DNA from: Mustelus asterias
Taxonomy: Eukaryota
Reading direction: 5' to 3'
Length of the DNA stretch: 64,000 nt
Assembly (NCBI RefSeq): GCF_964213995.1
Contig: NC_135815.1
Coordinates: 2,418,001 to 2,482,000, forward strand
Both the position numbers and the translations under genes were made by a program. The notes under the pieces are model-generated. The model was given only the letters and a program-made list of their open reading frames with translations, did not search any database and was not told the DNA's origin. Shown in pieces: positions 41,801 through 62,915 of the stretch. Positions within the stretch are counted from its first letter, which is position 1. Every line of letters starts with the position of its first letter.

Positions 41801-44800
41801 TCTCCACCACACTCTCAGACAGTGCATTCCAGATCCTAACCACTCGTTGTGTGAATCTGTCTCCACCACACTCTCAGACAGTGCATTCCAGATCCTAACC
41901 ACTCGCTGTGTGAATCTGTCTCCACCACACTCTCAGACAGTGCATTCCAGATCCTAACATCTCGCTGTGTGAAAAAGTTTTTTCTTCATTTCTCTTTGGT
42001 AAATTACTTTATTTTGATGCCCTGTGGTTCTCGATCCTTTCACAATGGGAACAGTTTCTCCTGATCTACTCTGTCAGACCTCCAATGTTTTTGAATACGT
42101 GTCAAATTTCCTCTCAGCCTTCTCTCCTCCATGGAAATCAGTCCTAATTTCTACAATACTTCTCCAAAGGCCAGGATACTGTGTGCTTTATTAACTGCTC
42201 TCTCCACCTGTCCTGTCAGCTTCAATGAATTATGCATACACACACTCAACTGTCTCTGTTTCTGCACCCCCTTTAGATTTGTAACCCCTATTTACATTGT
42301 CTCTTTATGTTCTTCCCACCGACATGTATCTCCTCACATTTCTCTGTGTTGAACTTTATCTGCCACCTGTCTGCCCACTCCAACATTTTGTCTCTGTCCT
42401 TTTGAATTTCCAAACGATATTCCTCACAGTTTCCAATACTCTCAAGTTTCAGATCACCCACAAATGTTGAAATTGTGTTCTGTACACTAAGGTCTCGGTC
42501 ATTCATGTATCTCAGGAAAAGCAAGATCCCAGCACTCAGCCCTGGGGAACTCCACTACAAATGATGGGCTGATCTTGGGCTTGAACTCCATTCGCTGCCT
42601 GCTCACCATGTCTCTGAATTCCCCGACAGAGCAACATCTCTGTATTCCAGCCTTAAATGTATTTAACAATGGAGCATCCACATCCCTCTGGGTGCAGCAC
42701 TGGAGAGATGGTTGCTGAGTTTGTGAGGTTTGGTGAGTGTGGACAGGCAGAGAAAGCGGATCATTCCTCATCCTCCCAACTTCACACAAACAAGCGTTTG
42801 GAAGCTCTGGGATTGTTTTGAATGTTCTGTGATTCTTTGGTATTGGTGCAAACTGCTACTGGATCACGGGTCTCTGCTCTGCTAAATGACTGATCTCTGG
42901 GATTGTTTCAGATCCATAAAAAAAGGCAACAATGTTAGAGGAAGAAGCCATTATGTTGCACTGGCCTTTCATTCCAGGCTGTTAACTTGCCACGTATCAA
43001 AGGGACATGTTTACCCGAATGTGCTCAGCAGAAACTGACAGAAACAGGTTCTGTCTGATTTTATTTCCATTCAGGTCGATGTACATTACTCAAACTGAAG
43101 CTGTAGTGTGTGTAACATTCTGATATTTTACAGAAGAATCATCCTCCAATAATCCCTGGACTTCAGATCCCGTTGTGTTCAGCCTGGCTATCATTCTGCC
43201 CTTGGTTGTCTTGTTCTGCATTGCTCTGCTCACAGGTTATCTTGTAAAAAAGAGGTTCTGTTCAGCAAAGAACTCCACACCAAGGTAAATACGATTCATC
43301 TTGTGTCTGCTGCTGTAACTGGACAGGGGCACTATTTTATAACTTGCTGCTTTTAGTGAGGAGTAACTTTTCCCTTGTCGCGTACAGTTCATGCGGAGTG
43401 ACCTGCTACTGATGAGAGCCACACATGTCCAGATGCTCAACTGGTGCCAGTCATCTCCAACTGTCACGGCATCACACTTACTCCAGCACTGACCAACAGG
43501 CACCTAACCTGCTGCTGAGAGTCAGGAAGGTTTTAACAGTTAAAGTACGAAACATCACCCTCAGGATATAAGTGCTGGATAATTCCCCACCTAGCCCACC
43601 GAATGAACTAGATCAGAGCGCTGGTTTCATGCCTGTGTCTCGCTAGCTGCACAGTCCCTCATGATGCTCAGACCAAGTGAGAACAGTTAGAATGGACACT
43701 CTGTGTAAGCAGCCTACTTCAGCCATTACCCTCCCCACAAGGAAACAATCCAATCATATTTACCCACCCTGTTCCCACATCTCTTCAGTTTCCTTTTCCA
43801 TCACCTCCCCCTCGAATCTAATCTCAATGCTGACATTATTTCTGCCTCACCCTCCCTTACGTGGCCAGGAGTTCCAACCTATCTGGAAGAGACTGAGACA
43901 CAGGTTCTGTCCCGTTGTCCCCAATCCAAACTCCCTGTGTGTCCTCTCGCTGCTCCCCGGGCTTTGGGATACAGGAAGCAAGAAGCAAAATGATTGGTTT
44001 ATTGATATCGAGACACAACAGTTTTATGAACTTACCCAGGTGTGGAAATCAGAATCAAGGATCATCATTCCCTCTGGGAGACCAAGGGTTAATCGCTCAC
44101 GACTCTGAACTTGTCCCTGACGAGAAATCATTGCAAAATGAGAAGTTTCTCAAACAATTCTTTCACTTCCTCAATCTGGAACAATAATAAGTTGCATGAT
44201 CCTGATCAAGCTTCCCAGCATGCTTTCTGATTTTGGTCAAATTCTTTGCCTTATTGTTGGAGCAAGTTCTGTCTATTTAGGAAATGATTCAGTTGATCTT
44301 GCTCATCCGTGAAATCTTCCATAAAAAACTAATATGGGAAATCCATGTTGTAAAATCTAAACTGCATCTCCACCCAGAGTGTGAATATTACAGCGCTGTT
44401 CTGTGGTAAAGTCGCAATTAAGCTAATGTGTGGCATTTCTTTAGGGTTCCTGATGGAGACCAGAACCCTGTGTACGCAACAGTGGATAGTAAGTAAACTC
44501 ATTCAATCATTATTGCAAAGTTTGGCAGGAATTACTCTCAATCCCAGATGTCCCTTTGATGCTGATAGTTTTGTGATGTAATTAACTTGAGAATAATTTG
44601 ACCAATTCATTGTCTGATTGACAGAATTTACTGTTAAAGGTTGTAAATCTACATCCTACAGAATGAAGATGGCAGGAGGCTGCCCCCAGCCTTGTAGCTG
44701 CACTGTGAAACACCCCCTCAGTGTGGCAATGCTGCAGCCAGTGGTCCCAAAGAGATAGAAACTTCCAGAAAGCCCAAGGAACCAGCTTGTAGTGATCACG

Positions 44801-46555
44801 CCTTTGTAGATCGAGCACATTGTCCGTTCCCAGAGGGATTCCTCGGGATAGAGAAGGTTCAGATCTGACCCAGTAAAGAGTTTAAAGATAGTGAGGTTTT
44901 GATGGAGAGAAAACCTATTCCCTCTGGCGAACGGATCAATAACCAGTGATCATCGAATTCAAATCACTGGGTAAAGATCTAGAGGGCAGATGGGGAGAAA
45001 TGAGAGTTGTTGGGATGTGGAATACTCGAGCTGGAAATGTGCTGGAAGCTGATTCCAGAAATAATCGGAAAAGAGAGTTGGACAAGTGCTGGAGGATGAG
45101 GAATTTCATGGATTGTGGATAAAAAGCAGAAATGTGGGATGAAGCACAATGACCTAGTACAGGCCGAATGGGGCGAATGGCCTCCTCCTGTTGTGTGAGA
45201 TTCTGATTTGGATGATGAGGTTTCGAAGACAGTGCAGCTGATGGAGAATAATCCACACGTCCCCCATTAGCTTCACTCTGAGAAAACTGCCCAAGGTGAC
45301 ACTGGGATTTTTCATTCGCTCTCATTCAAAGTTTAAAAAGCTCCATCTTTCTGTGGATCTATTCAGAAGTAACATCGTTGTGTTTCCTTTCAGATAAAAC
45401 CCAGAGCAGCAATCAAGAAGCAGCTTCTTCTGCCTTGGTAAGGAAATGCCGTACAGCTGTTGTGTTGCACAACACCAAGTTATTGAGAATGTCGTTAGTT
45501 CCCTTTCTGTAACTAACAGGTCCCGTCCCTTGTAACATCAGCAATTACTGTGGAAGAGCAGCTTTCCAACTGCACTGAGTCAACTCTCTGCCTCACCCAA
45601 CACAGAAATATTCTGGAGTTTACTGTACAGAACCAGTTACACAATATGTATGAAGTTTATATAAAATGTGCAATTCGGACAGAATTAGAAGCGTTTTGCA
45701 GCTAAAACCTAAACAATAGCAGTAGGAGTCGGCCATTCAGCCCATTGAACCTGCTGTCCCATTCGATACAATCATGGCTGATCACCCACCTCAATTCCAA
45801 CTTCCTTCACTATCTCCATATTCTTTAATTCATTTATTATCCCAAGTATTCCTGTTTAGGTTCCTGTAAGAAGCTGCAACACACAAATAGGCCTTGGATC
45901 GGGGAGATGGAATCCGTTGATTCCAGTTGGGAGAGAGAGCGGCTTGTCTCAACTGGCTTTGGATTTTTTACAATCTGTTTACAGGACATGGGCGTCGCTG
46001 GCTCGACCCAGCATTTATTGCCCATCCCTAATAGCCCCTTGAGAAGGTGATGGTGAGCTGCCTTCTGGATCCGCTGCAGTCCCTGTGGTGTAGGTGCTTG
46101 AGCTGTAAAAGATCCCGGGGCACTATTTGGAAGGTTGGCAGAGGAGTTGTCCTTTAATGTCTCGGTGGTATTTATCCCTTGATCAACATTATCACAGCCC
46201 ATAATCAGGTCACTGTCACATTTCTCTTTATGGGATCTTGTTTTGTACAAATTAGCAGCTATCGCAGTGTGACCAGTGTCAATAAAAAGCACATCCCAGC
46301 AGCTCGTCAGTACCTTCCAGAGAGAGAAAGAAACCATTCAGTTAAAAATAACTCCATTCGATCTGTTCACAGAGACATTCCTTTGTTGCGTTTGGACGAT
46401 GTTCAGTGATGAATGTTTCTATTGGATTCCAGGCCGGTGAAGGGGAATGTAGTTACGCCGAGCTTCGATTCCATGGTCAAGGCAGCATCCAGCTGAGAGT
46501 AACAGTTGCTGAGAGTCCCACAGAGTACTCTGCTGTGAAGCGCACTCAAAACTGA
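29552..46555 (+). CDS. Spliced gene model, 5'-partial (leader exon not found): tandem VJ-type IgSF inhibitory receptor, V1-V2-V3-TM-cytoplasmic tail with ITIM-like and ITSM motifs, about 463 aa without leader. Exons 29552-29887, 36844-37188, 40207-40554, 43134-43284, 44445-44488, 45394-45437, 46433-46555
   Basis: All junctions are GT-AG with pyrimidine tracts. Intron phases chain correctly (1,1,1,2,1,0) into one open frame ending in TGA at 46553-46555. Domain order is that of a type I receptor. Inclusion of V1 in the same transcript is inferred from phase only. Confidence 0.8.
30618..30878 (+). mobile_element. tRNA-derived Deu-type SINE (SacSINE-like); related copies at about 56970-57275 and 59386-59720
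   Basis: B box GTTCGAATCCC, then conserved core gggaaggaaatctgccgtccttacc(t/c)ggtctggcctac shared by the three copies. Confidence 0.65.
30957..32100 (+). mobile_element. LTR-like repeat (family of 27-1606) with internally duplicated 3' part
   Basis: Starts ...gatgatactgtgcctttaagaaatgt; contains gaatca(c/t)acctggagt twice. Confidence 0.55.
33905..36078. mobile_element. Non-autonomous DNA transposon (possibly PIF/Harbinger-like), GC-rich interior, hosting a CR1
   Basis: Terminal inverted repeats GGGCGATTCTCCCA / TGGGAGAATTGCCC. Confidence 0.55.
34110..35225 (+). mobile_element. 5'-truncated CR1 (frameshifted RT C-terminal half)
   Basis: ORFs 34260-34583 (FADD) and 34469-35137; (GTTTCTTT)n-like tail. 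Confidence 0.85.
36844..37188 (+). CDS. Ig V-set exon 2 (V2), pre-joined VJ domain
   Basis: Acceptor cctctttttaaag|GT GCG AAT GTT CCA; ANVPVLTQSPS...LQC...DVHW...DTAVYYCSVWGDISGNGTQLNVT; donor GTAAGT at 37189; phase 1-1. Confidence 0.92.
37495..38545 (-). mobile_element. Degraded LINE (CR1/L2 group) 3' fragment in the V2-V3 intron
   Basis: LNWASHIKAMATRAGQRLGIL...KAQVSSVMEYSPLVW resembles a non-LTR RT C-terminus. Confidence 0.65.
39829..40115 (+). mobile_element. HE1-like V-SINE
   Basis: tRNA-like head (GGTCGATTCCC) plus V-domain core tgtgtggag..tgcacgttctccccg...gggtttcctcc.ggtgctccggtttcctcc.acagtc; AATAAA/TTTA tail. Confidence 0.8.
40207..40554 (+). CDS. Ig V-set exon 3 (V3), membrane-proximal, rich in N-glycosylation sequons
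   Basis: Acceptor tttctttctcaatattaacag|CT; PLSDPVLMQYP...LQCAMYNASVIDTDVHW...DTAVYRCSVWSYIHGAGTQLNVT; donor GTAAGT at 40555; phase 1-1. Confidence 0.92.
40855..41972. repeat. 59-bp minisatellite, about 19 copies, derived from the CR1 3' coding end
   Basis: Unit TCTGTCTCCACCACACTCTCAGACAGTGCATTCCAGATCCTAACCACTCGCTGTGTGAA; the - strand reads FTQRVVRIWNALSESVVET; embedded in a degraded - strand CR1 (about 40703-42560). Confidence 0.95.
43134..43284 (+). CDS. Stalk/transmembrane exon
   Basis: Acceptor tgatattttacag|AA; EESSSNNPWTSDP-VVFSLAIILPLVVLFCIALLTGYLV-KKRFCSAKNSTP(R): 25-residue hydrophobic stretch followed by basic KKR; donor AG|GTAAAT (phase 2). Not in the ORF track. Confidence 0.88.
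44445..44488 (+). CDS. Cytoplasmic exon 1 (VPDGDQNPVYATVD)
   Basis: Acceptor catttctttag|G completes the phase-2 Arg codon; donor GTAAGT at 44489 (phase 1); carries a tyrosine motif. Confidence 0.8.
45394..45437 (+). CDS. Cytoplasmic exon 2 (NKTQSSNQEAASSAL)
   Basis: Acceptor gtttcctttcag|AT, donor TTG|GTAAGG; converts phase 1 to phase 0, as required to join the flanking exons. Confidence 0.75.
46433..46555 (+). CDS. Terminal cytoplasmic exon with ITIM-like (CSYAEL) and ITSM (TEYSAV) motifs
   Basis: Acceptor gtttctattggattccag|GCC (phase 0); AGEGECSYAELRFHGQGSIQLRVTVAESPTEYSAVKRTQN*; aligns without gaps to the - strand exon at 60684-60803. Confidence 0.85.
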   Translation, partial: AGEGECSYAELRFHGQGSIQLRVTVAESPTEYSAVKRTQN

Positions 46556-46679
46556 AAGCAAATCAACAAGACAAAGCAAGCAGGCAGGAAACCCCTCACC
46601 CAATCACAATCATCTCTGCCTTTGCTGCACATTTTGACAGGTTCAATCTCCCACACCAATATTCCTGCAAGATCAGACA

Positions 46680-46825
46680 TTCCAGACCCTGATATTACTG
46701 GACAGACAGACCCTCCCAGACCCTGATATTACTGGACAGACAGACCCTCCCAGACCCTGATATTAGTGGACAGACAGACCCTGATATTACTGGACAGACA
46801 GACCCTCCCAGACCCTGATATTATT
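46680..46825. repeat. Short tandem repeat, about 34-bp unit, about 4 copies, in the presumed 3' UTR
   Basis: CCAGACCCTGATATTACTGGACAGACAGACCCTC repeated, one copy internally shortened. Confidence 0.8.
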
Positions 46826-47441
46826 GCATGGACTGAAATTGCTGACATGTGAATATTGTGGTGAGGATATTATATACACAAAATGAAGCCAATAATTCTC
46901 CTTTGAATCTTTTCTGTATGAATATTGCTACAACCATGTAACTCATAAAAGCACATTGCATTTATAAATTCCTTTTGTTGAGTGAAATGCTGGTTTCGAT
47001 TTGCAATATGAAGGACTAACAATTGCTGGCTACTGGTCAGTGATTAATCTTTTCCAATGGGAGTTGGTGTGAATTGTGAAGAGAATGTTGGGGGTCTGGA
47101 TGAGCCTGTGTTCAATTATCGAGGCCCCAGTGAAGGGTGGAAATCTCAAGACTGTCTGCTCCTGGGCCCACGGGAAGGAGTTTGAATGAGGCTCGTTGCT
47201 GTGGTTGGTGGCCAGAGGTCAGTGGAGATTCCTGAGCCAGACTGGTGTTGGTGATTGATAGTGGGGCCAAGGAGTTCTTGTAAAACGGAATTCAAATGTG
47301 ATCATAGAGCTAATTACCAAAACCCTCAGGGCAGAGTCCTCATCTCAACCACCTTCAGCTGCTTCACTAACCACCTTCCCTCTGTCTGAGTAACAGCGAG
47401 GAGGGTATTTGCTGATGATTTCACACTCCTCTCCATTCACA

Positions 47442-47530
47442 GTAAGAAGTCTCACAACACCAGGTTAAAGTCCAACAGGTTTATTTGGAATCACGAGCTT
47501 TCAGAGCATTGTTTCTTCAGCTGAGTGGCC
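47442..47530 (-). mobile_element. Short Penelope pLTR-end insertion
   Basis: Matches 6716-6800; TSD CTCCATTCACA (47431-47441, 47531-47541). Confidence 0.75.
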
Positions 47531-48605
47531 CTCCATTCACAACTCTCCTATCAATGAAGAAGCTAATGATAATCTGCAGTTAGACCTGGTTAACATTCAT
47601 TGGCCGAAGTGGCAACTAACATTTGTACCTTAAAGGAATTCCAGTTACCATCTCTTGATCTCCAAGGGCAACAGCACCCTGGGAGAGCTGCCATTGCCAT
47701 CCTGGGTCACCTGTGAGCAGAGGTTGATCTGGAACAGTCATATCGATGCTGTGGCTACAACAGCCGGGAAGATGTTGGACATTCTGTGATAACTGGTTCA
47801 CCTCAAAGCTTCTCAACAATCTGAAAGGTATGTTAGGTGTGGACCTGAAGACTCACTCCTTGCCTGGGTGGGTCAGTCTGCAGCAACAGACTGATAGAGT
47901 GGACGTGGAGAGAGTGTTTCCACTCATAGGAAAAACTAGAACCAGAGGGCACAACTTCAGGCTGAAAGGATGATCCTTTAAAAAAGAGATGAGGAGGAAT
48001 TTCTTCAGCCAGAGAGTGGTGAATCTGTGGAACTCTTTGCCGCAGAAGGCTGTGGAGGCCGGGTCATTGAGTGTCTTTCAGACAGAGATAGATAGGTTCT
48101 TGATTAATAAGGGGATCAGGGGTTATGGGGAAAAGGCAGGAGAAACAGGATGAGAAAAATATCAGCCATGATTGAATGGCGGAGCAGACTCAATGGGCCG
48201 AGTGGCCTCATTCTGCTCCTATGTCTTATGGTCTTATGATCTCACACTGGAGAAGCTCAATACTGTTCACGACAGTGCAATTCCCTGGGGGGCGGGGGGG
48301 CGGCCGGGGGGTTGGGGGAGGAGGTTTGCCATTTCCACCCCCACCAGCACACACTCTGCTGTGTGATCCACAGGATCAGATTACTTGGAGTGTGCTGCCC
48401 TCTCCTGATTTTTTCGCACAACAGCAGGAACATTGTCAGAATCTTTTCAGCGGTCCAAGTCACACACTCATCCTGTTTGTGTTATATCCGCCATTCCATT
48501 GTCATCCGGTCATGGGACTTTCCCACCTATCAGAACCTTGGGAATACTGTCAGTACACAGACTGCAGTGGGCCCAGTATCACAGGTCAGAGGTTAACTAG
48601 GATAG

Positions 48606-49696
48606 TATTATTGTACGGCTCAGAAACCCCAAGTAAATTATGACGTTAGATTCGATCCCAACTAGTTGTTATTTTTGCCATTGGTGTGAGGATAAGGTGT
48701 TTCACTCCAGGTGTGATTCTACTGACTCACGAGGAAGCTTTTATTAAAAGAAACTTTATTTAACAACACAGTTTAACTGTAACAGATTAATTAGTTTAAC
48801 ATTTAACATACTTCAGCTTGAAAAGATACAATTCTTAACTGCTAACCTATTCCTATGAGTTCCAATTCAAGCAATATTCTCTTTTAGACTTAAAACCTCT
48901 CTTTAAAATCAGTTAGCAAATCCCATGTTGTTTGTAGTACTAAAGCATTTTGAACACCTCTGGAGAGAAAGAGAGAGACACCTGTCTTCTGGCACCCTCA
49001 AACAGCAGCCTCCAGCGTGACAAGAGAGACACATCTTGCTTCCTTCAGGACCAGACAGAAACTAACTTTTAAAATAAAAGAGAAACTGTGTATCTTTCCT
49101 GCAAGCCCAGCCCTTCCCATTGGCACATGACTCTGTCTCTTGACAAGCAACCTAATCAAAACCCTACTCTGAAAACCCCAAGAGAAATCTAAGTAAACAC
49201 AAATGCAAGGAAGTTAAAACTAGAGGACACAGCCTCAAAATAAAGGGGGGTCGGTTTAAGACAGAGTTGAGGAGGAACTTCTTCTCCCAGAGGGTGGTGA
49301 ATCTCTGGAATTCTCTGCCCACTGAGGTGGTGGAGGCTACCTCGCTGAATATGTTTAAAGCGCGGATGGACGGATTCCTGAGCGGTAAGGGAATTAAGGG
49401 TTATGGGGATCAGGCGGGTAAGTGGTACTGATCCACGTCAGATCAGCCATGATCTTATTGAATGGCGGGGCAGGCTCGAGGGGCTAGATGGCCTACTCCT
49501 GCTCCTATTTCTTATGTTCTTATGTTCTTATTAACTCTGATTAGACAAACACACCATTAGTTACAATCAGTCATTATTCTGCATTCTCAACATGGAGCTC
49601 CCTGTTGCCCAGGCAAATGGGCACCACATAAAACAGAGCAGAATTTTAAACATACCCCTTACAAGGAGCATTTCTTAAAGGCACAGCATCATCACA
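48606..49696 (-). mobile_element. LTR-like repeat (family of 27-1606) hosting a CR1 3' end (about 49215-49530, +)
   Basis: Near-identical blocks to 17740-17860 and the terminus ttcttaaaggcacagcatcatcaca. Confidence 0.6.
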
Positions 49697-50600
49697 TTAG
49701 AAAAGAAATATTCACACTCCAGAATAAAAATACATTGGATACATTTATTCTCATTTCTGGGGATTTTTTTGGACAATTTGATGTTAAAACCTTAATTTTG
49801 TCGTGGGAGATATATGCTGATAATTATTTTGGAGAGAAACTGTTTTGTATGATTGGCTAAGTTTGATTTTCAATTTATATATTAGTCTCGGCTGGTCAGC
49901 AGTAGGGGTTGTATTTAGAAATCATTGCCAGTAATTTCCAATTATTTCTCTCACAAATTTTAAAGTCTGTTCCTCCATCTTCAACCAACCAATCAACAGG
50001 ATATGGTCATGACAGCAGGGGCCTGACCCTGGCACTGCCCGTTGGCAGGGTTTTAGATGAGGGGTGAGTGTGAAAAAGGACAAAGGGGCTTCCTGTCGTG
50101 TTCCGACCCACTCCCACCTCGGGAGCAGAAGAGGCCTCAGACAGGCCACTCAGTCTTTCACAATTGAGGCCCTGAAACAGCCAATTACTGACCACTTAGC
50201 GGCCATTTCACACCCAGCTTCAATTTCATAGGCTGGTGCAGGGATTTCCCACCAATGGGGGAAGCCACAAAATAATCACATTTAGGCCTGGAGCAGGGTG
50301 TGTGTTGGGGAGGGGGGGGGGGGGGGGGGTGCAGGGTGGAGAGGGAGGGGGAGGGAGGCAGGGTGGAGAGGGAGCAAAGGAGTCTGGGAAGGGTTTTTAT
50401 TTTAACTTTAAAAGTCAGTTACCTGGGTGGTTCCCCCTCAGTAGTAGTTTTTTTTTTTTCTCTCGGGCCCCTAGCCCTATAAATTGGTGCAGAGGAGATA
50501 CCCGATCCTCTACACTGGTAGAGGATCCCACCCTTCCATCCTCCTCTAACCTAATTATAAGTGTGGGGAAGTTTTTTGTTTTCTTTTTTTCTTGCTGGTA

Positions 50601-51530
50601 ATGGCTTCAGGGATGGCAGTTCAGGCAGTATGCTGCATCTCCTGTGGGATGTATGTGGTGAGGAAATCCAGTAGTGTTTCAGGAGATTTTAGTTGTAAGA
50701 AGTGCATTAGATTGCAGCTTCTGGAGGAGCGTGTAAAGGAGCTGGAGGGGGAGGTAGAGGAACTCCGCATAATTCGGGAGGCGGAGGTGGAAGTTGATAG
50801 GAGTTATAGAGAAATAGTAACTCCTAGAAATGAGGCTTGGGTCAATGCCAGGAGGAGGGGTAAGAAGCAATCGGGAAGACAATCCCCTGGGGCGGTTCCC
50901 CTCCATAATAGGTTTTCGGTGCTGGAGGCTACAGTTGAGGAGGAATCAACTGAGCATAGAGAGCAGATCTCTGGGGGTGAGCCGAGTGAGAAAGCTCAGG
51001 TGGTTAGGGGCTGTAAAAGACTGGGCCTTGTGATTGGGGACTCCACAATTAAGGGGACAGATAGGAGGGTCGGAACTAAAGGTAGGGACTCAGGGTTGGT
51101 GTGTTGCCTACCAGGGGCTGGGGTCCGGGATGTGTCTGACAGGGTATTCAGGACTCTTAGGGGGGAGGGAGATAAACCACAAGTTATTGTACATGTGGGG
51201 ACACACGACATAGGGAGGATAGGGGAAGGGGATATTAGGCAGGGATTTATGGAGTTGGGGTGGAAACTAAAGGCCAAGACTGACAGAGTGGTTATCTCTG
51301 GACTCTTGCCTGTACCACGGGATAGTTTAGAGAGGAATAGGGAGAGGGAAGGTTTGAATTCATGGCTGAGGGGATGGTGCAGGAGGGAGGGGTTCAGGTA
51401 CTTAAGCAATTGGGGCTCGTACTGGGGAAGGTGTGACCTCTATGAGAAGGATGGTCTACACCTTAATCAGAAGGGGACCAATATCCTGGGGGGTAAATTT
51501 GCTAAGGCCATGCAGGGAGGTTTAAACTGA
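50601..51530 (+). CDS. CR1 ORF1p (CxxC..CxxC zinc finger, coiled coil, SGNH esterase-like domain)
   Basis: CCISCGMY...FSCKKC; LEERVKELEGEVEEL; VIGDS, VHVGTHD, DGLHLN; first ATG at 50601. Confidence 0.9.
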   Translation: MASGMAVQAVCCISCGMYVVRKSSSVSGDFSCKKCIRLQLLEERVKELEGEVEELRIIREAEVEVDRSYREIVTPRNEAWVNARRRGKKQSGRQSPGAVPLHNRFSVLEATVEEESTEHREQISGGEPSEKAQVVRGCKRLGLVIGDSTIKGTDRRVGTKGRDSGLVCCLPGAGVRDVSDRVFRTLRGEGDKPQVIVHVGTHDIGRIGEGDIRQGFMELGWKLKAKTDRVVISGLLPVPRDSLERNREREGLNSWLRGWCRREGFRYLSNWGSYWGRCDLYEKDGLHLNQKGTNILGGKFAKAMQGGLN

Positions 51531-51580
51531 TTCGGGGGGGGGGAGGGATCCTGAGTAGTGGGGCTGAAAGTGAGGGATGC

Positions 51581-54400
51581 ATGGATGGGGACTGCAATGC
51601 ACGGCATTGCAGAGGTGGGGTGGAGCAGGGTTTGAAATGTGTATACTTCAATGCCAGGAGTATTCGCAATAAAGTGGGTGAACTTGCAGCGTGGATCAGT
51701 ACCTGGGACTTCGATGTTGTGGCTATTTCAGAGACATGGATAGAGCAGGGGCAGGAATGGATGCTGCAGGTCCCGGGGTTCAAATGTTTTAGTCGAAGTA
51801 GGGAAGGAGGTAGAAGAGGGGGAGGGGTAGCATTATTGGTCAGAGATTGTATCACAGTGTCAGAGAGGAGGTTTGATGAGGACTTATCTGTTGAGGTAGT
51901 ATGGGCGGAGATTAGAAATAGGAGAGGAGAGGTCACCCTGTTGGGAGTCTTTTATAGACCTCCTAAAAGTTCTAGAGAGGTTGAGGAAAGGATTGCGGAG
52001 TCAATCCTGCTTAGGAGTGAAAGTAATAGGGCAATTGTTATGGGGGATTTTAACTTGACTAATATTGACTGGAATTGTTATAGCTCTAGCTCGTTAGAGG
52101 GGTCAGTTTTTGTTCAAAGCGTGCAGGAAGGTTTTTTGACTCAGTATGTAGACAGGCCAACTAGAGGTGAGGCTATATTGGATCTGGTGCTGGGAAATGA
52201 GCCAGACCAGGTGCTAGACTTGGAAGTTGGTGTGCATTTTGGTGATAGTGACCACAATTCGGTTACGTTCACCTTAGTGATGGAAAGGGATAGGCATGAA
52301 CCTCGGGCCAGTGGTTTTAGCTGGGGGAAGGGTAATTATGAGGCTATTAGGAGAGAATTAGGAAACATAGGTTGGACTAGGAGATTACAGGGACTGGGAA
52401 CGTCCGACATGTGGAGTTTTTTCAAGGAGCAGCTACTGCGAGTCTGTGATAGGTATGTCCCTGTCAGGCAAGGAGGAATTGGTAGGGCTGGGGAACCGTG
52501 GTGCACCAAAAAAGTTTCTTTGTTGGTTAAAAAGAAAAAGGAGGCTTATGTTCGGATGAGACGTGAGCACTCGGGTAGTGCACTAGAAAGCTTTAGATTG
52601 GCTAAGAGGGAGTTGAAGAGCGAGCTTAGAAGGGCTAAAAGGGGACATGAGAAGACTTTGGCGGATAGGGTTAAAGAGAATCCTAAGGCGTTCTATAGGT
52701 ATGTCAAGAACAGAAGGTTGGTTAGGGCAAGTTTAGGGCCAGTTATAGATGGCAGAGGGAAGTTATGTGTGGAACCGGAGGAGATTGGTGAAGCATTGAA
52801 CCAATATTTCTCTTCGGTGTTCACGCAAGGGGACATGAATATAGCTGAGGAGGACACTGGGTTGCAGGGGAGTAGAATAGACATTATTACAGTTGATAAG
52901 GAGGATGTGCAGGATATTCTGGAGGGTCTGAAAATAGATAAATCCCCTGGTCCGGATGGGATTTATCCAAGGATTCTCTGGGAGGCAAGAGAAGTGATTG
53001 CAGAGCCTCTGGCTCTGATCTTCAGGTCGTCGTTGGCCTCTGGTATAGTACCAGAAGATTGGAGGTTAGCGAATGTTGTCCCATTGTTTAAGAAGGGGAA
53101 CAGAGACTTCCCCGGGAATTATAGACCGGTGAGTCTCACTTCTGTTGTCGGCAAGATGTTGGAAAAAATTATAAGGGATAGGATTTATAGTTATTTGGAG
53201 AGTAATGAATTGATAGGTGATAGTCAGCATGGTTTTGTGGCAGGTAGGTCGTGCCTTACTAACCTTATTGAGTTTTTTGAGAAAGTGACCAAGGAGGTGG
53301 ATGGGGGCAAGGCAGTGGACGTGGTATATATGGATTTTAGTAAGGCGTTTGATAAGGTTCACCATGGTAGGCTTCTGCAGAAAATGCAGATGTATGGGAT
53401 TGGGGGTGATCTAGGAAATTGGATCAGGAATTGGCTAGCGGATAGGAAACAGAGGGTGGTGGTTGATAGTAAATATTCATCATGGAGTGCGGTTACAAGT
53501 GGTGTACCTCAGGGATCTGTTTTGGGGCCACTGCTGTTTGTAATATTTATTAATGATCTGGATGAGGGTATAGTTGGGTGGATTAGCAAATTTGCTGATG
53601 ACACCAAAGTCGGTGGTGTGGTAGACAGTGAGGAAGGGTGTCGTAGTTTGAAGGAAGACTTAGACAGGTTGCAAAGTTGGGCCGAGAGGTGGCGGATGGA
53701 GTTTAATGCGGAGAAGTGTGAGGTAATTCACTTTGGTAGGAATAACAGATGTGTTGAGTATAGGGCTAACGGGAGGACTTTGAATAGTGTGGAGGAGCAG
53801 AGGGATCTAGGTGTATGTGTGCATAGATCCCTGAAAGTTGGGAATCAAGTAGATAAGGTTGTTAAGAAGGCATATGGTGTCTTGGCGTTTATTGGTAGGG
53901 GGATTGAATTTAGGAGTCGTAGCGTTATGTTGCAACTGTACACAACTCTGGTGCGGCCGCACTTGGAGTACTGTGTGCAGTTCTGGTCCCCACATTACAG
54001 GAAGGATGTGGAGGCTTTGGAGAGGGTGCAGAGGAGGTTTACCAGGATGTTGCCTGGTATGGAGGGGAGATCCTATGAGGAGAGGCTGAGGGATTTGGGA
54101 TTGTTTTCGCTGGAAAGGCGGCGGCTAAGAGGGGATCTTATTGAAACATATAAGATGATTAGAGGTTTAGATAGGGTGGATAGTGATAGCCTTTTTCCTC
54201 TGATGGAGAAATCCAGCACGAGGGGGCATGGCTTTAAATTGAGGGGGGGTAGTTATAGAACCGATGTCAGGGGTAGGTTCTTTACCCAGAGGGTGGTGAG
54301 GGATTGGAATGCCCTGCCAGCATCAGTAGTAAATGCGCCTAGTTTGGGGGCGTTTAAGAGATCCGTAGATAGGTTCATGGACGAAAAGAAATTGGTTTAG
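51581..54400 (+). CDS. CR1 ORF2p (APE endonuclease plus reverse transcriptase), 939 aa
   Basis: YFNARS, AISETW, MGDFN, SDHN endonuclease motifs; [25 protein letters not shown] motifs; no stops. Confidence 0.95.
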   Translation: MDGDCNARHCRGGVEQGLKCVYFNARSIRNKVGELAAWISTWDFDVVAISETWIEQGQEWMLQVPGFKCFSRSREGGRRGGGVALLVRDCITVSERRFDEDLSVEVVWAEIRNRRGEVTLLGVFYRPPKSSREVEERIAESILLRSESNRAIVMGDFNLTNIDWNCYSSSSLEGSVFVQSVQEGFLTQYVDRPTRGEAILDLVLGNEPDQVLDLEVGVHFGDSDHNSVTFTLVMERDRHEPRASGFSWGKGNYEAIRRELGNIGWTRRLQGLGTSDMWSFFKEQLLRVCDRYVPVRQGGIGRAGEPWCTKKVSLLVKKKKEAYVRMRREHSGSALESFRLAKRELKSELRRAKRGHEKTLADRVKENPKAFYRYVKNRRLVRASLGPVIDGRGKLCVEPEEIGEALNQYFSSVFTQGDMNIAEEDTGLQGSRIDIITVDKEDVQDILEGLKIDKSPGPDGIYPRILWEAREVIAEPLALIFRSSLASGIVPEDWRLANVVPLFKKGNRDFPGNYRPVSLTSVVGKMLEKIIRDRIYSYLESNELIGDSQHGFVAGRSCLTNLIEFFEKVTKEVDGGKAVDVVYMDFSKAFDKVHHGRLLQKMQMYGIGGDLGNWIRNWLADRKQRVVVDSKYSSWSAVTSGVPQGSVLGPLLFVIFINDLDEGIVGWISKFADDTKVGGVVDSEEGCRSLKEDLDRLQSWAERWRMEFNAEKCEVIHFGRNNRCVEYRANGRTLNSVEEQRDLGVCVHRSLKVGNQVDKVVKKAYGVLAFIGRGIEFRSRSVMLQLYTTLVRPHLEYCVQFWSPHYRKDVEALERVQRRFTRMLPGMEGRSYEERLRDLGLFSLERRRLRGDLIETYKMIRGLDRVDSDSLFPLMEKSSTRGHGFKLRGGSYRTDVRGRFFTQRVVRDWNALPASVVNAPSLGAFKRSVDRFMDEKKLV

Positions 54401-54496
54401 GTTGGAGGGTCACAGTTTTTTTTTAACTGGTCGGTGCAACATCGTGGGCCGAAGGGCCTGTTCTGCGCTGTAATGTTCTATGTTCTATGTTCTATG

Positions 54497-56466
54497 GAGG
54501 GGGAGGGAGGCAGGGTGGAGAGGGAGGGGGAGGGAGGCAGGGTGGAGAGGGAGGGAGGGGGAGGGAGGCAGGGTGGAGAGGGAGGGGGAGGGAGGCAGGG
54601 AGGGGGAGGGAGGCAGGGTGGAGAGGGAGGGAGGGGGAGGGAGGCAGGGTGGAGAGGGAGGGGGANNNNNNNNNNNNNNNNNNNNNNNNNNNNNNNNNNN
54701 NNNNNNNNNNNNNNNNNNNNNNNNNNNNNNNNNNNNNNNNNNNNNNNNNNNNNNNNNNNNNNNNNNNNNNNNNNNNNNNNNNNNNNNNNNNNNNNNNNTA
54801 GGGAGGCAGGGTGGAGAGGGAGGGGGAGGGAGGCAGGGTGGAGAGGGAGGGGGAGGGAGGCAGGGTGGAGAGGGAGGGGGAGGGAGGGAGGCAGGGTGGA
54901 CAGGGAGTGAGGGGGAGGGAGGCAGGGTGGAGAGGGAGGGGGAGGGAGGCAAGGTGGAGAGGGAGGGGGAGAGAGGGAGGGGGAGGGAGGCAGGGTGGAG
55001 AGGGAGGGGGAGGGAGGCAGGGAGGGGGAGGGAGGCAGGGTGGAGTGGGAGGGGGAGGGAGGCAGGGTGGAGAGGGAGGGGGAGGGAGGCAAGGTGGAGT
55101 GGGAGGGGGAGGGAGGCAGGGTGGAGAGGGAGGGGGAGGGAGGCAGGGTGGAGTGGGAGGAGGAGGGAGGCAGGGTGGAGAGGGAGGGGGAGGGAGGCAG
55201 GGTGGAGTGGGAGGAGGAGGGAGGCAGGGTGGAGTGGGAGGGGGAGGGAGGCAGGGTGGAGTGGGAGGGGGAGGGAGGCAGGGTGGAGTGGGAGGGGGAG
55301 GGAGGCAGGGTGGAGTGGGGGGGGAGGGAGGCAGGGGGGAGGGAGGCAGGGTGGATTGGGAGGGGGAGGGAGGCAGGGTGGACTGGGAGGGGGAGGGAGG
55401 CAGGGTGGAGTGGGAGGGGGAGGGAGGCAGGGTGGATTGGGATGGGGAGGGAGGCAGGGTGAAGTGGGAGGGGGAGGGAGGCAGGGTGGAGTGGGAGGGG
55501 GAGGGAGGCAGGGTGAAGTGGGAGGGGGAGGGAGGCAGGGTGGATTGGGAGGGGGAGGGAGGCAGGGTGAAGTGGGAGGGGGAGGGAGGCAGGGTGGATG
55601 GGGAGGGGGAGGGAGGCAGGGTGGATTGGGAGGGGGAGGGAGGCAGGGTGGAGTGGGAGGGGGAGGGAGGCAGGGTGGAGTGGGAGGGGGAGGGAGGCAG
55701 GGTGGATTGGGAGGGGGAGGGAGGCAGGGTGGAGTGGGAGGGGGAGGGAGGCAGGGTGGAGTGGGGGGGGAGGGAGGCAGGGTGGAGTCGGGGGGAGGGA
55801 GGCAGGGTGGAGTGGGAGGGGGAGGGAGGCAGGGTGAAGTGGGAGGGGGAGGGAGGCAGGGTGGATTGGGAGGGGGAGGGAGGCAGGGTGGATTGGGAGG
55901 GGGAGGGAGGCAGGGTGGAGTGGGAGGGGGAGGGAGGCAGGGTGGAGTGGGAGGGGTAGGGAGGCAGGGTGGATTGGGAGGGGGAGGGAGGCAGGGTGGA
56001 GTGGGAGGGGGAGGGAGGCAGGGTGGAGTGGGGGGGGAGGGAGGCAGGGTGGAGTGGGGGGGGAGGGAGGCAGGGTGGAGTGGGGGGGGAGGGAGGCAGG
56101 GTGGAGTGGGAGGGGGAGGGAGGCAGGGTGGATTGGGAGGGGGAGGGAGGCAGGGTGGAGTGGGAGGGGGACGGAGGCAGGGTGGAGTGGGAGGGGGAGG
56201 GAGGCAGGGTGGAGTGGGGGGGGAGGGAGGCAGGGTAGATTGGGAGGGGGAGGGAGGCAGGGTGGAGTGGGAGGGGGAGGGAGGCAGGGTGGATTGGGAG
56301 GGGGAGGGAGGCAGGGTGGAGTGGGAGGGGGAGGGAGGCAGGCTGGATTGGGAAGGGGAGGGAGGCAGGGTAGAGTGGGAGGGGGAGGGAGGCAGGGTGG
56401 AGTGGGAGGGGGAGGGAGGCAGGGTGGATTGGGAAGGGGAGGGAGGCAGGGTGGAGTGGGAGGGGG
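54497..56466. repeat. G-rich 27-bp minisatellite (consensus GGGAGGGGGAGGGAGGCAGGGTGGAGT), with an assembly gap at 54666-54798; first units lie upstream of the CR1 at about 50330-50373
   Basis: Direct reading; variant units end in GAGA, GAGT or GATT. Confidence 0.95.
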
Positions 56467-56852
56467 TGCTCTATCAGAAGTCAACTTCAACTTTGGTTTT
56501 CCCCGCCAACTTCAGGTCCGGTGGCTGCTGGAACACCCTGCACTGGCCCATCTCCCAGCCCCTGCCAACCCACAGCCTTTCACTCAACAGGCCAATCCTC
56601 CAACATTCATTCCCCCCAAGCCTTCCCCTCTTCTCCGTATCCCCAAATGGACACAGGACACGTGCTCCCTCAGTCCTGGGGAGAAGATGTTTCACACAAC
56701 ATGGTGGGAGGAACATGCCCAGTGCACAATCCTTACCCACCATATTGGAGCCTTGATACCAGCTTCTGCAACTCAAAGGGAAGCCACACCTCCCAGTCTT
56801 CCCTGGATTCCCTGGATTCCACCCGGAATCCTGAACCCTGCCTTGTCTATCC

Positions 56853-56933
56853 AAATAAACCTGTTGGACTTTAACCTGGTGTTGTTAAACTTCTTACTGT
56901 GTTTACCCCAGTCCAACGCCGGCATCTCCACAT
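56853..56933 (+). mobile_element. Short Penelope pLTR-tail insertion
   Basis: aaataaacctgttggactttaacctgg...catctccacat; TSD CTTGTCTATCC (56842-56852, 56934-56944). Confidence 0.8.
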
Positions 56934-57800
56934 CTTGTCTATCCTTCCCATCAGCACCACCCTGCTCACCAATTTGAATTCAATAAATATCTGGAATTAG
57001 GAATCTACTGGTGACCATGAAACCATCGTGGATTGTCGGAAAAACCCACCTGGTTTACTCAATGTCCTTTAGGGAAGGAAATCTGCTGTCCTTACCCGGT
57101 CTGGCCTACTGGTGACTCCAGATATGGTTGACTCTCAACTGCCCTCTGAAAATGGCCTCGCAAGCCATTCAGTTGTTCAAGAAGGCAGCTCACCACCACC
57201 TTCTCAAGGGCACATAGGGATGGGCAATAAATGCCGGCCAACCAGCGGTGTCCATGTCCCATAAATTAATGAAAAATAAAGCTCCATCAGCCCCTTTTCC
57301 GCCACTGGCAAAATGGCAGCAGCAAGAGATCTGGCCCACCAGCTCCACCCACCTGCATCATTTTTCCAGCTTTCTCACTTTCCACCATGAAGCCAAAGGG
57401 CTTCAAAGATTCCGGGCTCGGAGTATAAACGGATGTGATCTTCTTTTCCCACTGTGCCCCTCCTGGGTGCTTTGAAGCTTTAAGCTGCTAACTTGGGTTG
57501 TGACTGTGCGACGTGGACTCTCTGTGCTCTGTCTGTGCCCTCACAGTCACATCGAATCTGATCATGGCATTCTCGTCACTAAAGTATTTTTTTAACAGCA
57601 CGACCATCAATAAGAATGGAAATGGTGGGGAAGTGGCTGGAATTATTGCAGCACCTAAAAGGGTAATGAGCTTGAGCTGGTGACCACGTACGCTTTGACA
57701 GCTCACCACAAGAGGAAGTATCTTATTCTGGTTCTGTGTAGCTGCAGCTCTCTCTCCACTGGGTATTTTGTGATTCTTTCATGGGCTGTGCTCATCATTG

Positions 57801-58318
57801 GTGATTTGATTTGATTTGATTTATTATTGTCACTTGTATTAACATACAGTGAAAAGTAGTGTTTCTTGCGCGCTATACAGACAAAGCATACCGTTCATAG
57901 AGAAGGAAAGAAGAGAGTGCAGAATGTAGTGTTACAGTCATAGCTCAGGTGTAGAGAAAGATCAACTTAATGCAAGGTAGATCCATTCAGAAGTCTGACA
58001 GCAGCAGGGAAGAAGCTGTTCTTGAGTCGGTTGGTACGTGACCTCAGACTTTTGTATCTTTTTCCCGACAGAAGAAGGTGGAAGAGAGAATGTCCGGGGT
58101 GCGTGGGGTCCTTAATTATGCTGGCTGCTTTTCCGAGGCAGTGGGACGTGTAGACAGAGTCAATGGATGGGAGGCTGGTTTGCGTGATGAATTGGGCTAC
58201 ATTCGCGACCATTTGTAGTTCCTTGCGGTCTTGGGCAGAGCAAGAGCCATACCAAGCTGTGATACAACCAGAAAGAATGCTTTCTATGGTGCATCTGTAA
58301 AAGTTGGCGAGAATCATG
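57801..58318 (-). mobile_element. Rex1/Babar-type LINE 3' fragment
   Basis: ORF 57967-58317 FYRCTIESILSGCITAWYG...RLKNSFFPAAVRLLN; near-identical to 16436-16930; (AAATC)n tail. Confidence 0.8.
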
Positions 58319-60391
58319 AGTCCAGCATTTATTGCCCATCCCTAATTGTTCTTGGGAAGATGGTGGAGGGCTGCCTTCTTGTGACGCTGCAGTCCCTGTG
58401 GTGTCGGAACACCCAGCACCGAATCACAGAGTCACAGAGTTGTAACAACACTGAAGGAGGCCGCTCAGCCCATCGTGTCCACCCCAGCTCTCCAAATGAG
58501 CATCATGTCTGAGTGCCATTCCCCTGGCTTTTCCCCGTAACCTCTGGGTGTACCCACACTCAAATAAACACTCATTAAATAAACTGTGATCTGCTTACCT
58601 GCTCACTAGATCACAGCTCTGTTTAATCACATTACTGGCAATCATTGATATCCTGCAAGCGTGCGATTTGTTCTGAATTTCAAACTGTTGTTTGTATCCT
58701 TGGTGTAACATTAAGACCTTTTGGGCAGCCAATTGTAAGAGGTGTTAGTGCAAATTAAATCTGGCTTCCTTTAATCTGCCCTATACAGTCCCATCTATTG
58801 CTCCAAGTCAACAGGGCGATATTAAGTTATCAGCAGTCAACTGAGCGAGGGAACTGCAGGAAGCTGGTATGAAAGGAAGATATTTAAGTCCAGGAGTAAG
58901 AACAGGAAGCTGGAACAGATCCTGTTCAGTGAAATTAAGAGTCAGAAGCACAGGAAAGTTTAAAGCTCAAAGCGAGAAGCAAATGTATTGCAAAGTGCAC
59001 TGTGAGAAGCCAGAGATTCAAGGGGACAGCTGAAGGTCTGGAAATCCTTACCACGGGCTGTGAAGCAGTGCTGTATGTCGGTACAGCTGAGTATCTGAGA
59101 GTGGGTGTGTAAGGTGAAGCTTGAATACATGTGGTGATCCCGGGGAGAGAAATATCGGAAGGAGTTACGGAAACCCTGGAGGTGGACTCTTGTGCAAGGC
59201 ATCTGAGGGAAAGTGTTGGTTGGGAGAAGATCCCAAAGCAAGTACTTGAATGCGGAGATTGGAAACACTTGTTTGAAAGGCAGTGAGGCTAGTTGGCTCA
59301 AAGTGGGACAATCGTCTGGGGTGAGTTGATGAGAAATCCATAGCATCTGTTTGGAGTGATATCTTGGGGAGGCAATGACCTAGCGGTGTTATCGCAAGAC
59401 TATTAACCCAAAAACTCAGCTAATGATCTGGGGACCCGGGTTTGAATCCCGCCACGGCAGATGGTGGAATTTGAATTCAATAAAAAACATCTGGAATTAA
59501 GAATCTACTGATGACCAGGAAACGATTGTCAGAGAAGCCCATCTGGTTCACTAACGTCCTTGAGGGAAGGAAATCTGCCATCCTTACCCGGTCTGGCCTA
59601 TACATGACAACAGAGCCATAGCAATGTGGTTGACTCTCAACTGTTTCCAAGGGCAACGAGGGATGGGCAATAAATGCTGGCCAGCCAGCGACGGCTGTGT
59701 CCCATGAATGAATTTTTTTAAAATCTGTCACGTGGTTTAAGAGTGTGGTGATTCTGACCACAGGGTCACCGATTGGTTTACTGGACTGTGTACATACCGT
59801 CAACATTAGAGTATAAGACAGATTTAGTAACTTGTGTTATCCATACAAATCTGTATATATCAGTAAAGGTGAATTGTCCTGTCTGTCCCCACTCACCCTC
59901 CTCCTGTCAGTGTGGAGCTGGGAAACCTGCAGGGTTATTTCCATTTCATCCACATCATTTTCCTCTTGGTGAAAATGCAAATAGAATCTGTTTTTATGAA
60001 TAGAGGCATGAACACAAAGATTTGGGTGTTATGGTGAACTTCAATAATTCAGTGGTTATCCGCAGGGGGAGTATTGTCCAAATCGGGGTCCCACATTGGA
60101 GAGGGCTCCAAGATAGTTCACTAGAATGATGCCAGGGATGAGGGACGTCAGCGATGTGCAGAGACCGGATGAGTTGGGATTATTATCCTTCGTTAATGTA
60201 CCGCAGACATGAAATAAACAGGGAGAAACTGTTTCCAACGACAGGAGTCTCAATAAGCACAGAGACGCTGATTTAAAATTAGGGTTCCAGTGGTGGGCAC
60301 TGGCCTCTCTATCCTGGGGGTGTATCTATACAGTTGATCAGGAATCAGCTTCATTGGGTGAATTCACTAATAACTGTCACACAAAGTTACC

Positions 60392-60560
60392 GTAAGAAGT
60401 CTCACAACACCAGGTTAAAGTCCAACAGGTTTATTTGGTAGCAAATACCATAAGCTTATTTTGGTATTTGCTACCAAATAAACTTGTTGGACTTTAACCT
60501 GGTGTTGTGAGACTTCTTACTGTGTTTACCCCAGTCCAACGCCGGCATCTCCACATCATG
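60392..60560. mobile_element. Palindromic mini Penelope-derived insertion (169 bp)
   Basis: 13-bp TSD ACACAAAGTTACC (60379-60391, 60561-60573); inverted arms meet at AAGCTT. Confidence 0.85.
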
Positions 60561-60683
60561 ACACAAAGTTACCACCAGAGTATTGTGATGATCGCAGAGC
60601 CGGTCTGGCTGCTCTTGGAGTTAACAGCAGCAAACTCTGCCCTTTATCCAAACAGAGTGACTTATTGAAGAATTGATGTCCAT

Positions 60684-60803
60684 TCACTGGGAATGGTTGA
60701 TGGCAGCATACACAGTCGCCTCCTCAGTGTCCAAAGGCATTGACGTTCTGCTTTTCTGATGGAGGAACTGGAGATCGGCGTAAAACAATTCTCCCTCGTC
60801 TAT
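60684..60803 (-). CDS. Terminal ITIM+ITSM exon of a second, convergently oriented paralogous receptor gene (rest lies mostly beyond the window)
   Basis: Acceptor ctctctgtctcgtttcag|ATA (phase 0); IDEGELFYADLQFLHQKSRTSMPLDTEEATVYAAINHSQ*; canonical ITIM LFYADL and ITSM TVYAAI, with Tyr at exon positions 8 and 32 as in 46433-46555. Confidence 0.82.
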   Translation of the reverse strand: MDEGELFYADLQFLHQKSRTSMPLDTEEATVYAAINHSQ

Positions 60804-61021
60804 CTGAAACGAGACAGAGAGGATTTTACCACCTGGGGAGAGACGCTCTCCCCCGACACACAGAACAAGCCCCCACAAACTACACCTCCACCCCCACCCC
60901 AACCAAACCGCCAAATCCCCAGCCCCAAATCACCCTGGCAAACCACACAACTTGTTTATTACACGATAAGACGATACAGAGGCTTGTAGCCACCTGGCCG
61001 CCATCAGCTCCCGAGATGACT

Positions 61022-61586
61022 CAAAGAAGAACGAACAAAGAAAATTACAGCACAGGAACAGGCCCTTCGGCCCCTCCAAGCCTGCACCGACCATGCTGCC
61101 CGACTGAACTAAAACCCCCTACCCTTCCGGGGACCATATCCCTCTATTCCCATCCTATTCACGTACTTGTCAAGATGTCCCCTAAAAATCAATACTGTAT
61201 CCACTTCCACTACTTCTCCAGGCACCCACTACTCTCTGTGTAAAAAATCTGCCTCGTACATCTCCTTTAAGCCTTGCCCCTCGCACCTTAAACCTGTGCC
61301 CCCCAGTAATTGACTCTTCCACCCTGGGAAAAAGCTTCTGACTATCCACTCTGTCCATGCCCCTCATAATCTTGTAGACTTCTATCAGGTCTCCCCTCAA
61401 CCTCCGTTGCCCCAGTGAGAACAAACTAAGTTTCTCCAATCTCTCCTCATAGCTAATGCCCGCCATACCAGGCAACATCCTGGTAACTCTTTTCTGTACC
61501 CTCTCCAAAGCCTCCACATCCTTCTGGTAGTGTGGCGACCAGAATTGAACACAATATTCCAAGTGCGGCCTAACTAAGGTGTACAA
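61022..61586 (-). mobile_element. CR1 3' fragment in the last intron of the - strand paralogue
   Basis: ORF 61182-61628 LVRPHLEYCVQFWSPH...FFTQRVV; tail matches 24640-24800. Confidence 0.85.
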
Positions 61587-61699
61587 GAGCCCACGCTTAG
61601 CAAGGTCATGCACCACCCTGCTCCCCAATTGGTCCCCTTGGTCATGTGAACCTCACTGTGCAGAATAATCCTTAAAGGGACAATCACCACATCCATGTA

Positions 61700-62875: not shown

Positions 62876-62915
62876 CCATGCATCGACCTGTCATGAACTT
62901 TTGAATTTGTACCAT
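62866..62915 (-). CDS. Candidate penultimate cytoplasmic exon of the - strand paralogue (xGTNSKVHDRSMHGIFQ)
   Basis: Acceptor gtgtttagtctccag|AT and donor CAG|GTGTAG give a 50-nt phase 1-0 exon, matching the architecture of 45394-45437. The donor is weak and protein similarity is low. Confidence 0.4.

Follow-up and report, generated by a model that had tools for sequence, protein, structure and literature searches.

A likely paired-receptor family built on tandem VJ immunoglobulin domains in cartilaginous fish

What genes end in two short tyrosine-bearing exons that lie tail to tail in a shark genome, and do these genes belong to a system of paired receptors? We examined these exons in a 64,000-nt stretch of Mustelus asterias, here called the window (NC_135815.1, or C15, positions 2418001–2482000; coordinates without a prefix are window positions). 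An initial annotation had read them as the last exons of paralogous receptors with paired immunoreceptor tyrosine-based inhibitory and switch motifs (ITIM and ITSM). Both exons close intact genes, here A (plus strand) and B (minus strand), which consist of a leader, three single-exon variable–joining (VJ) domains, an uncharged transmembrane (TM) segment, two 44-nt exons, and a tyrosine tail (Table 1). We consider it probable that A and B are intact paralogues in a non-rearranging, tandem-VJ immunoglobulin (Ig) receptor family of cartilaginous fish, that through their tails they likely inhibit immune cells by recruiting SHP-1/SHP-2, and that sister genes with near-identical ectodomains and an immunoreceptor tyrosine-based activation motif (ITAM) likely activate. 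Read directly from the data were the exon structure, the open frames, the splicing of gene A, the tail types across species, the exon-limited identity of the V domains, and the twin gene A*.

Two terminal exons and the genes they close

The two tail peptides lie where they had been placed, at 46433–46555 (plus) and 60803–60684 (minus), each behind a CAG acceptor and in phase 0, and on the sequence both carry Tyr at positions 8 and 32 in an ungapped alignment. That alignment holds 14 identities in 39 residues and a BLOSUM score of 52, which none of 100000 shuffles reached (shuffle mean −30). The supposed divergence of the spacer holds between the paralogues, with 3 of 16 residues matching, but not inside each orthologue set, where the spacer is partly conserved. 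The distance between the tyrosines is kept, as had been proposed: it is 24 in 30 of the 38 homologous tails and 23 in the other eight, all from stingrays and mobulids. A genome search returned a single strong match for each tail, and a homologue search with the tail only returned family members exclusively. A hit of the tail to Pfam DUF4578 (E 0.016) was taken as motif likeness. The paired ITIM/ITSM label fits gene B, whose tail matches the canonical pattern (S/I/V/LxYxxI/V/L, then TxYxxV/I), but not gene A, whose first motif is CxYxxL; Cys at Y−2 lies outside the ITIM consensus of S/I/V/LxYxxI/V/L (PMC8631942).

Gene A is spliced V3–TM–C1–C2–tail in public contigs of two studies. In run X16, one 981-letter contig joins TM, C1, and C2 at GT..AG sites and agrees with gene A at three diagnostic positions, and its loose ends match the 3′ end of VJ3 and the start of the plus-strand tail exon; the spliced joints imply that run X16 is RNA. 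Two contigs of run X1, from a relative and a separate study, have the same exon order and ends. The product corresponds to a 480-aa RefSeq model of Mustelus asterias (P0012), auto-named Ig gamma heavy chain-like. The first VJ exon of gene A (29552–29887) has a CDR3 (third complementarity-determining region) two codons longer than other copies, and its acceptor directly follows apparent repeat-derived sequence that replaces the usual exon start.

For gene B, the minus-strand TM and VJ exons expected to the right were found on C15 beyond the window. Joined at their GT/AG sites, eight exons make an open frame of 479 aa with phases as in A, and the possibility that this tail belongs to an unrelated ectodomain fails at the DNA level: the frame leads to the same VJ family. 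When the gene B last exon was compared with contigs of four runs, contigs of short and long interspersed elements (SINE/LINE) dominated; the core of the exon had zero cover, and in two runs there was shallow cover of the 3′ bin only, a result that speaks neither for nor against.

Old tails and homogenized ectodomains

The tails of A and B have been separate for a long time. TM plus tail is 38% identical between A and B, each tail type is monophyletic in the tail tree (support 100/98), and TM-plus-tail identity is 33% between types within species versus 61–64% within a type across species. Species with the B tail number 17, among them rays, sawshark, sevengill, and horn shark; the A tail is found in 7 galeomorph species. 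On this sampling the A/B duplication would predate the shark–ray split, with a weak root for which the type-E gene is the sole, long-branched outgroup.

The ectodomain exons have a different history. The VJ exons of A and B are 97–99% identical (VJ3 327/330 nt, VJ2 321/330 nt), and the likeness is lost no more than tens of bases from the splice sites: except for some tens of bases ahead of VJ2, the 150-nt flanks match at 78–82 of 150 positions versus 74 ± 6 at random. Within species, V domains of A and B are 93–94% identical (6 and 5 pairs); within one tail type across families they are 73–75% identical (44 and 48 pairs). In the listed part of a tree of 210 domains, grouping is by domain class first and then largely by species or order, and high within-species ectodomain identity was seen again in five genera. 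Judged by these comparisons, the V exons are homogenized exon by exon, in other sharks as well. Gene conversion would be the means that keeps the ectodomains alike while opposite tails persist. Old opposite tails joined to homogenized ectodomains are the pattern of paired receptors termed merohomogenization (PMC3210942).

The same identity could instead stem from very recent duplication or shuffling of exons, without ligand constraint and without repeated conversion between paired receptors. We regard this as rather improbable. The number of VJ exons does range from 1 to 9 across models, and gene B contains a duplicated exon whose donor is dead, but the abrupt loss of identity next to the splice sites, the domain order largely kept across species, and the recurrence in five genera favor conversion between paired receptors. 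Most of the variation among the 11 VJ2-class exons of this cluster falls in CDR2 and CDR3-J, a distribution that points to the ligand face.

The ITAM twin, the proposed mechanism, and the wider cluster

The initial annotation had also predicted a multigene cluster, and family genes were found on both sides of the window on C15. Gene A has a near-identical twin, A*, which differs from it at 247 of 43779 intron bases and 14 of 1182 exon bases (99.4% identity). The homology drops to 97% around C1–C2 and ends past C2. Beyond that point A* lacks the ITIM exon and instead has exons of 42 nt (phase 0-0) and 43 nt, together giving YxxL-x7-YxxL, followed by a short last exon. These ITAM half-exons were the only such exons in the 864 kb examined, and within that span no ITAM exon was found downstream of gene A or of a type-C pseudogene. 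Activating paralogues with a charged TM residue had been put forward as possible; the TM segments were uncharged by eye, and the ITAM is carried in the receptor's own tail instead.

A and B might be inhibitory or adaptor receptors with no living activating partner, A* being either a silent copy thrown up by rearrangement or a duplicate made in the assembly. Debris in the cluster and the 99.4% likeness of A* to A speak for this account, but we consider it unlikely: the frame of A* is open through five cytoplasmic exons with canonical sites, A* has one extra VJ exon and a unique 3′ end, DNA contigs of run X18 contain sequence unique to A*, A* letters occur in X15, and the same gene type, an A-type TM with an ITAM tail, is modeled in four other sharks (Chiloscyllium, Hemiscyllium, Scyliorhinus, and Rhincodon). 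One DNA contig at the A* junction has 30 letters on the shared side, 1 short of our bridging rule, and was therefore not counted as a bridge; its depth was 7.6 versus ~24, which is not a copy-number measure. No contig among the loose ends listed joins C2 to the ITAM exon, and contigs lose rare forms. The ITAM exons of A* may be either an old orthologue or a capture from a type-C gene; the A* intron contains no relic of orectolobiform or type-C spacer exons. The residue after the C1 tyrosine is Glu in 4 of 5 ITAM genes with an A-type TM and Ala or Thr in all 9 A genes.

Across species, a word search gave 77 family proteins among 125 candidates, all elasmobranch, from 21 species. Their tails were classed as A (9), B (29), ITAM (15), and double-YxN (3), with 21 in none of these classes; 14 of the 15 ITAM tails fit YxxL/I-x7-YxxL/I. 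Type C combines a YEN-type motif with an ITAM (12 of the 77 proteins, 9 species), and type D carries a pair of YxN motifs. Searching 1.84 billion representatives with a profile brought in members from Narcine and Callorhinchus (a chimaera); among 30 profile-search proteins looked up, those of bony vertebrates were light-chain-, NITR-, or SIRP-like by our own reading, and none had the V domains plus tail of the family. In Mobula hypostoma, isoforms P0050 and P0059 of the modeled locus LOC134350038 differ in their TM exons and in their tails, one inhibitory and of type B, the other an ITAM tail of type C, through either alternative splicing or a model artifact. P0106 and P0111, on the same Chiloscyllium chromosome, represent a further type with one VJ, no clear TM, and a long tail that bears YAN motifs; a gene of this type was not found in the Mustelus regions fetched.

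We propose the following mechanism. Ligand binding would lead to tyrosine phosphorylation by Src-family kinases. SHP-1 or SHP-2, through tandem SH2 domains, would then dock at two points on the last-exon tyrosines, 23–24 residues apart, and damp activation. Ala at pY+1, the residue after the phosphotyrosine, favors SHP-1 (PMC8631942), and by that rule the Ala at this position would do so here; SHP binding sites are reported as conserved across jawed vertebrates (PMC12151841). The ITAMs of A* and type C would recruit Syk-family kinases, and the opposing receptors would share a fast-changing ligand. Because the junction before the last exon is phase 0, the ITIM/ITSM exon and the ITAM exon could interchange in frame.

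Several points weigh against this picture. We infer the signaling steps for A, B, A*, and type C from motifs. The first motif of the A tail is non-canonical in all nine A tails, each with Cys at Y−2, and the second has Thr at Y−2 in just 1 of 9 orthologues. What appears as a tandem A* could be a second haplotype. Homologue searches returned neither a gene B nor an A* protein of Mustelus asterias from the databases, and the cross-species evidence comes mostly from automated gene models. The ratio pN/pS was 1.5 in CDR2 and 0.7 in framework, values from 11 non-independent copies that do not constitute a selection test.

The cluster also includes debris: a frameshifted type-C gene, an inverted fragment of leader and V, and orphan exons. 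The type-C pseudogene (C15:2545461-2562238, L007–L009) lies head-to-head with gene B, has a frameshift in its first VJ and no ITAM exons, and has a leader protein-identical to that of the type-D gene. A second family block (C15:1535144-1683846, L044–L059), with the type-D gene (P0069) and the type-E gene 0.6–0.9 Mb to the left, also holds an orphan VJ and duplicated tail exons; the tail exons of the type-E gene were sought and not found in the regions examined. The neighbors of the cluster are a TRIM gene, PTK2B, a ZNF395-like gene, and CHRNA2, and we take the PTK2B–CHRNA2 neighborhood to be that of human 8p21. The two blocks flank PTK2B to ZNF395, a layout that would fit an inversion with both ends inside the cluster, so genes A and B need not have lain tail to tail for long. 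Of the old inverted duplication first proposed, the age of the paralogous tails stands, and the inverted arrangement may be younger than they are, the region being rearranged. Introns and intergenic sequence in the window hold minisatellites of 59, 27, and 27 bp (40849–41973, 54495–56466, and 61702–62879) and long CR1/L2-like LINE open reading frames (19951–23860 and 50550–54397).

Table 1. Exons of genes A and B and location of gene A* (window positions, or C15 positions where prefixed)
Feature	Position	Strand	Properties	Support
Gene A leader	C15:2414982-2415033	+	3 kb left of window	RefSeq model P0012
Gene A VJ1	29552..29887	+	phase 1-1	Pfam V-set E 3e-21; splice sites; P0012 match
Gene A VJ2	36844..37188	+		Pfam V-set; P0012 match; splice sites
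Gene A VJ3	40207..40554	+	membrane-proximal	Pfam V-set; splice sites
Gene A TM	43134..43284	+	phase 1-2; membrane span without charged residue	GT..AG joint in contigs aligned to near-identical twin
Gene A cytoplasmic exon 1 (C1)	44445..44488	+	44 nt; phase 2-1; first tyrosine in NPVYATV	
Gene A cytoplasmic exon 2 (C2)	45394..45437	+	44 nt; phase 1-0	homology to ITAM twin stops ~30 nt downstream
Gene A last exon	46433..46555	+	CxYxxL and TxYxxV, 24 residues apart	start is loose end after C2 in runs X16 and X1
Gene B last exon	60684..60803	-	canonical ITIM (LxYxxL) and ITSM (TxYxxI), 24 residues apart	
Gene B last intron	60804..64000	-	up to window end	
Gene B C2	C15:2482107-2482150	-	beyond window	
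Gene B C1	C15:2484703-2484746	-	motif TVYANV; beyond window	
Gene B TM	C15:2486535-2486670	-	beyond window	
Gene B extra VJ	C15:2489030-2489377	-	GT donor lost; beyond window	
Gene B VJ3	C15:2493358-2493705	-	beyond window	
Gene B VJ2	C15:2497696-2498040	-	beyond window	
Gene B VJ1	C15:2500350-2500700	-	beyond window	
Gene B leader	C15:2509582-2509633	-	beyond window	
Gene A*	C15:2274604-2346360 (L026–L033)		~120 kb to the left; four VJ exons; split ITAM tail	

V-domain lineage and comparison with known systems

The nearest V outside the family in this genome belongs to a split light-chain gene on C23, of the group named Ig sigma-2, with a 12-bp recombination signal sequence (RSS) and a constant light-chain (CL) exon. 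This sigma-2-type gene, near 1.60 Mb (L062:8331-5950), has an RSS, a degenerate J, and a CL, and is probably damaged. Mean identity of the VJ2 class was 44% to sigma-2 (best 50%; reference P0224, named ‘Igsigma-2’), 39% to VJ-C1, 34% to lambda, and 29% to TCR alpha/delta-like domains (TCR, T-cell receptor). In a V tree the family formed a clade (95/96, 13 of 14 rows) and sigma-2 another (98/92), with the branching order of family, sigma-2, and VJ-C1 unsupported; a larger V tree, whose bootstrap had not settled, did not recover the family as one clade. Two cysteines are present in 184 of 210 family domains and four in 1 of 210, and a GxG J motif in 206–208 of 210. The domains have a fixed short CDR3. 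Pro44 of the light-chain V interface is found in none of the 210, the J aromatic residue is often lacking, and each domain has ~3.5 N-glycan sites, which suggests that the V domains are unpaired or monomeric. Elsewhere in the genome, C13:60.07-61.34 Mb (L065–L080) holds a cluster of lambda-like light-chain genes with germline-joined VJ plus CL, and C373 (L081) a single-exon VJ, possibly a PRARP-type gene, with close similarity to the Heptranchias VJ-C1 protein P0196.

As to origin, we can offer only a tentative scenario: early cartilaginous fish may have turned a germline-joined Ig sigma-2 VJ exon, itself a germline RAG product, into an innate paired-receptor block, in which the exon was chained, its pairing face was lost, and inhibitory or ITAM tails came to replace each other at a single phase-0 junction, perhaps through alternative splicing within a locus as well. 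Single-exon VJ genes have been sought as relics of the antigen-receptor precursor (PMC12227049). The family could be another such relic lineage or, in reverse, an antibody gene recycled into innate receptors, and either answer affects the reading of shark VJ genes. Paired-receptor evolution is displayed here in compact form, with tails older than several shark orders, ectodomain exons homogenized to 99%, and a predicted switch from inhibitory to activating by one exon swap. Its database names mislead, being scattered over Ig heavy chain-like, SIRP-like, pIgR-like, perlecan-like, and ROBO-like. We found no description in the literature searched, although subscription papers and supplements (e.g., shark genome papers) may hold one, and this chondrichthyan paired-receptor family of light-chain-like VJ domains is apparently undescribed so far.

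Like ectodomains with opposite tail motifs in one cluster, the hallmark of paired inhibitory/activating Ig receptors, are present in A and A* and, across species, in types A, B, and C. SIRP alpha/beta, CD33-related Siglecs, CEACAM1/3, and NITR likewise have a last-exon ITIM and ITSM at similar spacing and inhibitory and activating members, and CEACAM3 has its own ITAM, which the ITAM of A* resembles; the domain make-up and V lineage of the present family differ from each of them.

SIRP deserves separate mention because the genes could be divergent shark SIRP members or ohnologues under another name. Automated annotation gives several RefSeq models the name ‘tyrosine-protein phosphatase non-receptor type substrate 1-like’, the domains of SIRPs are of VJ type and their Tyr motifs come in pairs at similar spacing, and SIRPA adjoins PDYN, a paralogue of the 8p21 gene PNOC. 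We nevertheless hold this to be very unlikely. An inhibitory SIRP has a V followed by two C1-set domains, and the activating member has a charged TM. No C1-set stretch passed independently in any of 10 family proteins, and one did in both controls; TM segments are uncharged; and Ig light-chain V domains scored far higher than P0093, the one SIRP-like protein retrieved (from lungfish, the label being ours), which did not reach the top 60 single-domain scores (the tree included no named SIRP). A weak search found no opioid-precursor match on C15, and a reduced search with P0093 found nothing there.

The tandem-VJ family is distinct from other groups too. CD33-related Siglecs have a sialic-acid-binding V-set and C2-set domains; all family domains are V-set with a J motif. 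CD300, pIgR, TREM, MDIR, and NILT have an extra V cysteine pair and no J motif, the reverse of the cysteine and J counts given above. NITR has a V and a cysteine-rich I domain; the family has no I-type domain, and NITR-like proteins ranked much lower in the profile search.

PRARP, which we take to be the label for VJ-C1 genes, shares with the family a non-rearranging, single-exon VJ, as do UrIg and UrIg2. UrIg has a VJ followed by C1, and UrIg2 a TM and conversion-homogenized exons (PMC12227049). Unlike all three, the family lacks C1, has tyrosine-based tails, and neighbors TRIM, PTK2B, ZNF395-like, and CHRNA2 genes, not MHC or IgH/TCR. The Ig sigma-2 light chain (type I, NS5, sigma-cart), the group of highest V identity among those tested, is germline-joined in skates (PMC5192425). 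In contrast to its V-(J)-CL minicluster, the family has no CL and no Pro44 and has a tandem array, a TM, and a signaling tail. PD-1 resembles the family in its ITIM–ITSM tail, its T/V-EYATI being similar to the B tail (PMC12151841), and its tyrosines Y223/Y248 are spaced by 25 (PMC7078208). PD-1 is a single-copy gene with a single V and the motif (I/V)(D/E)Y(A/G)(E/V)L(D/E)F; the family differs in this motif and has three VJ domains, a third tyrosine exon, a multigene cluster, and ITAM sisters. Finally, KLRC, Ly49, and PIR (PMC3210942) share with the family old, conserved opposite tails and ectodomain exons homogenized within species, whereas tandem VJ domains of antigen-receptor type, exon sharing between two inhibitory-type genes, and a split ITAM of its own set the shark family apart.

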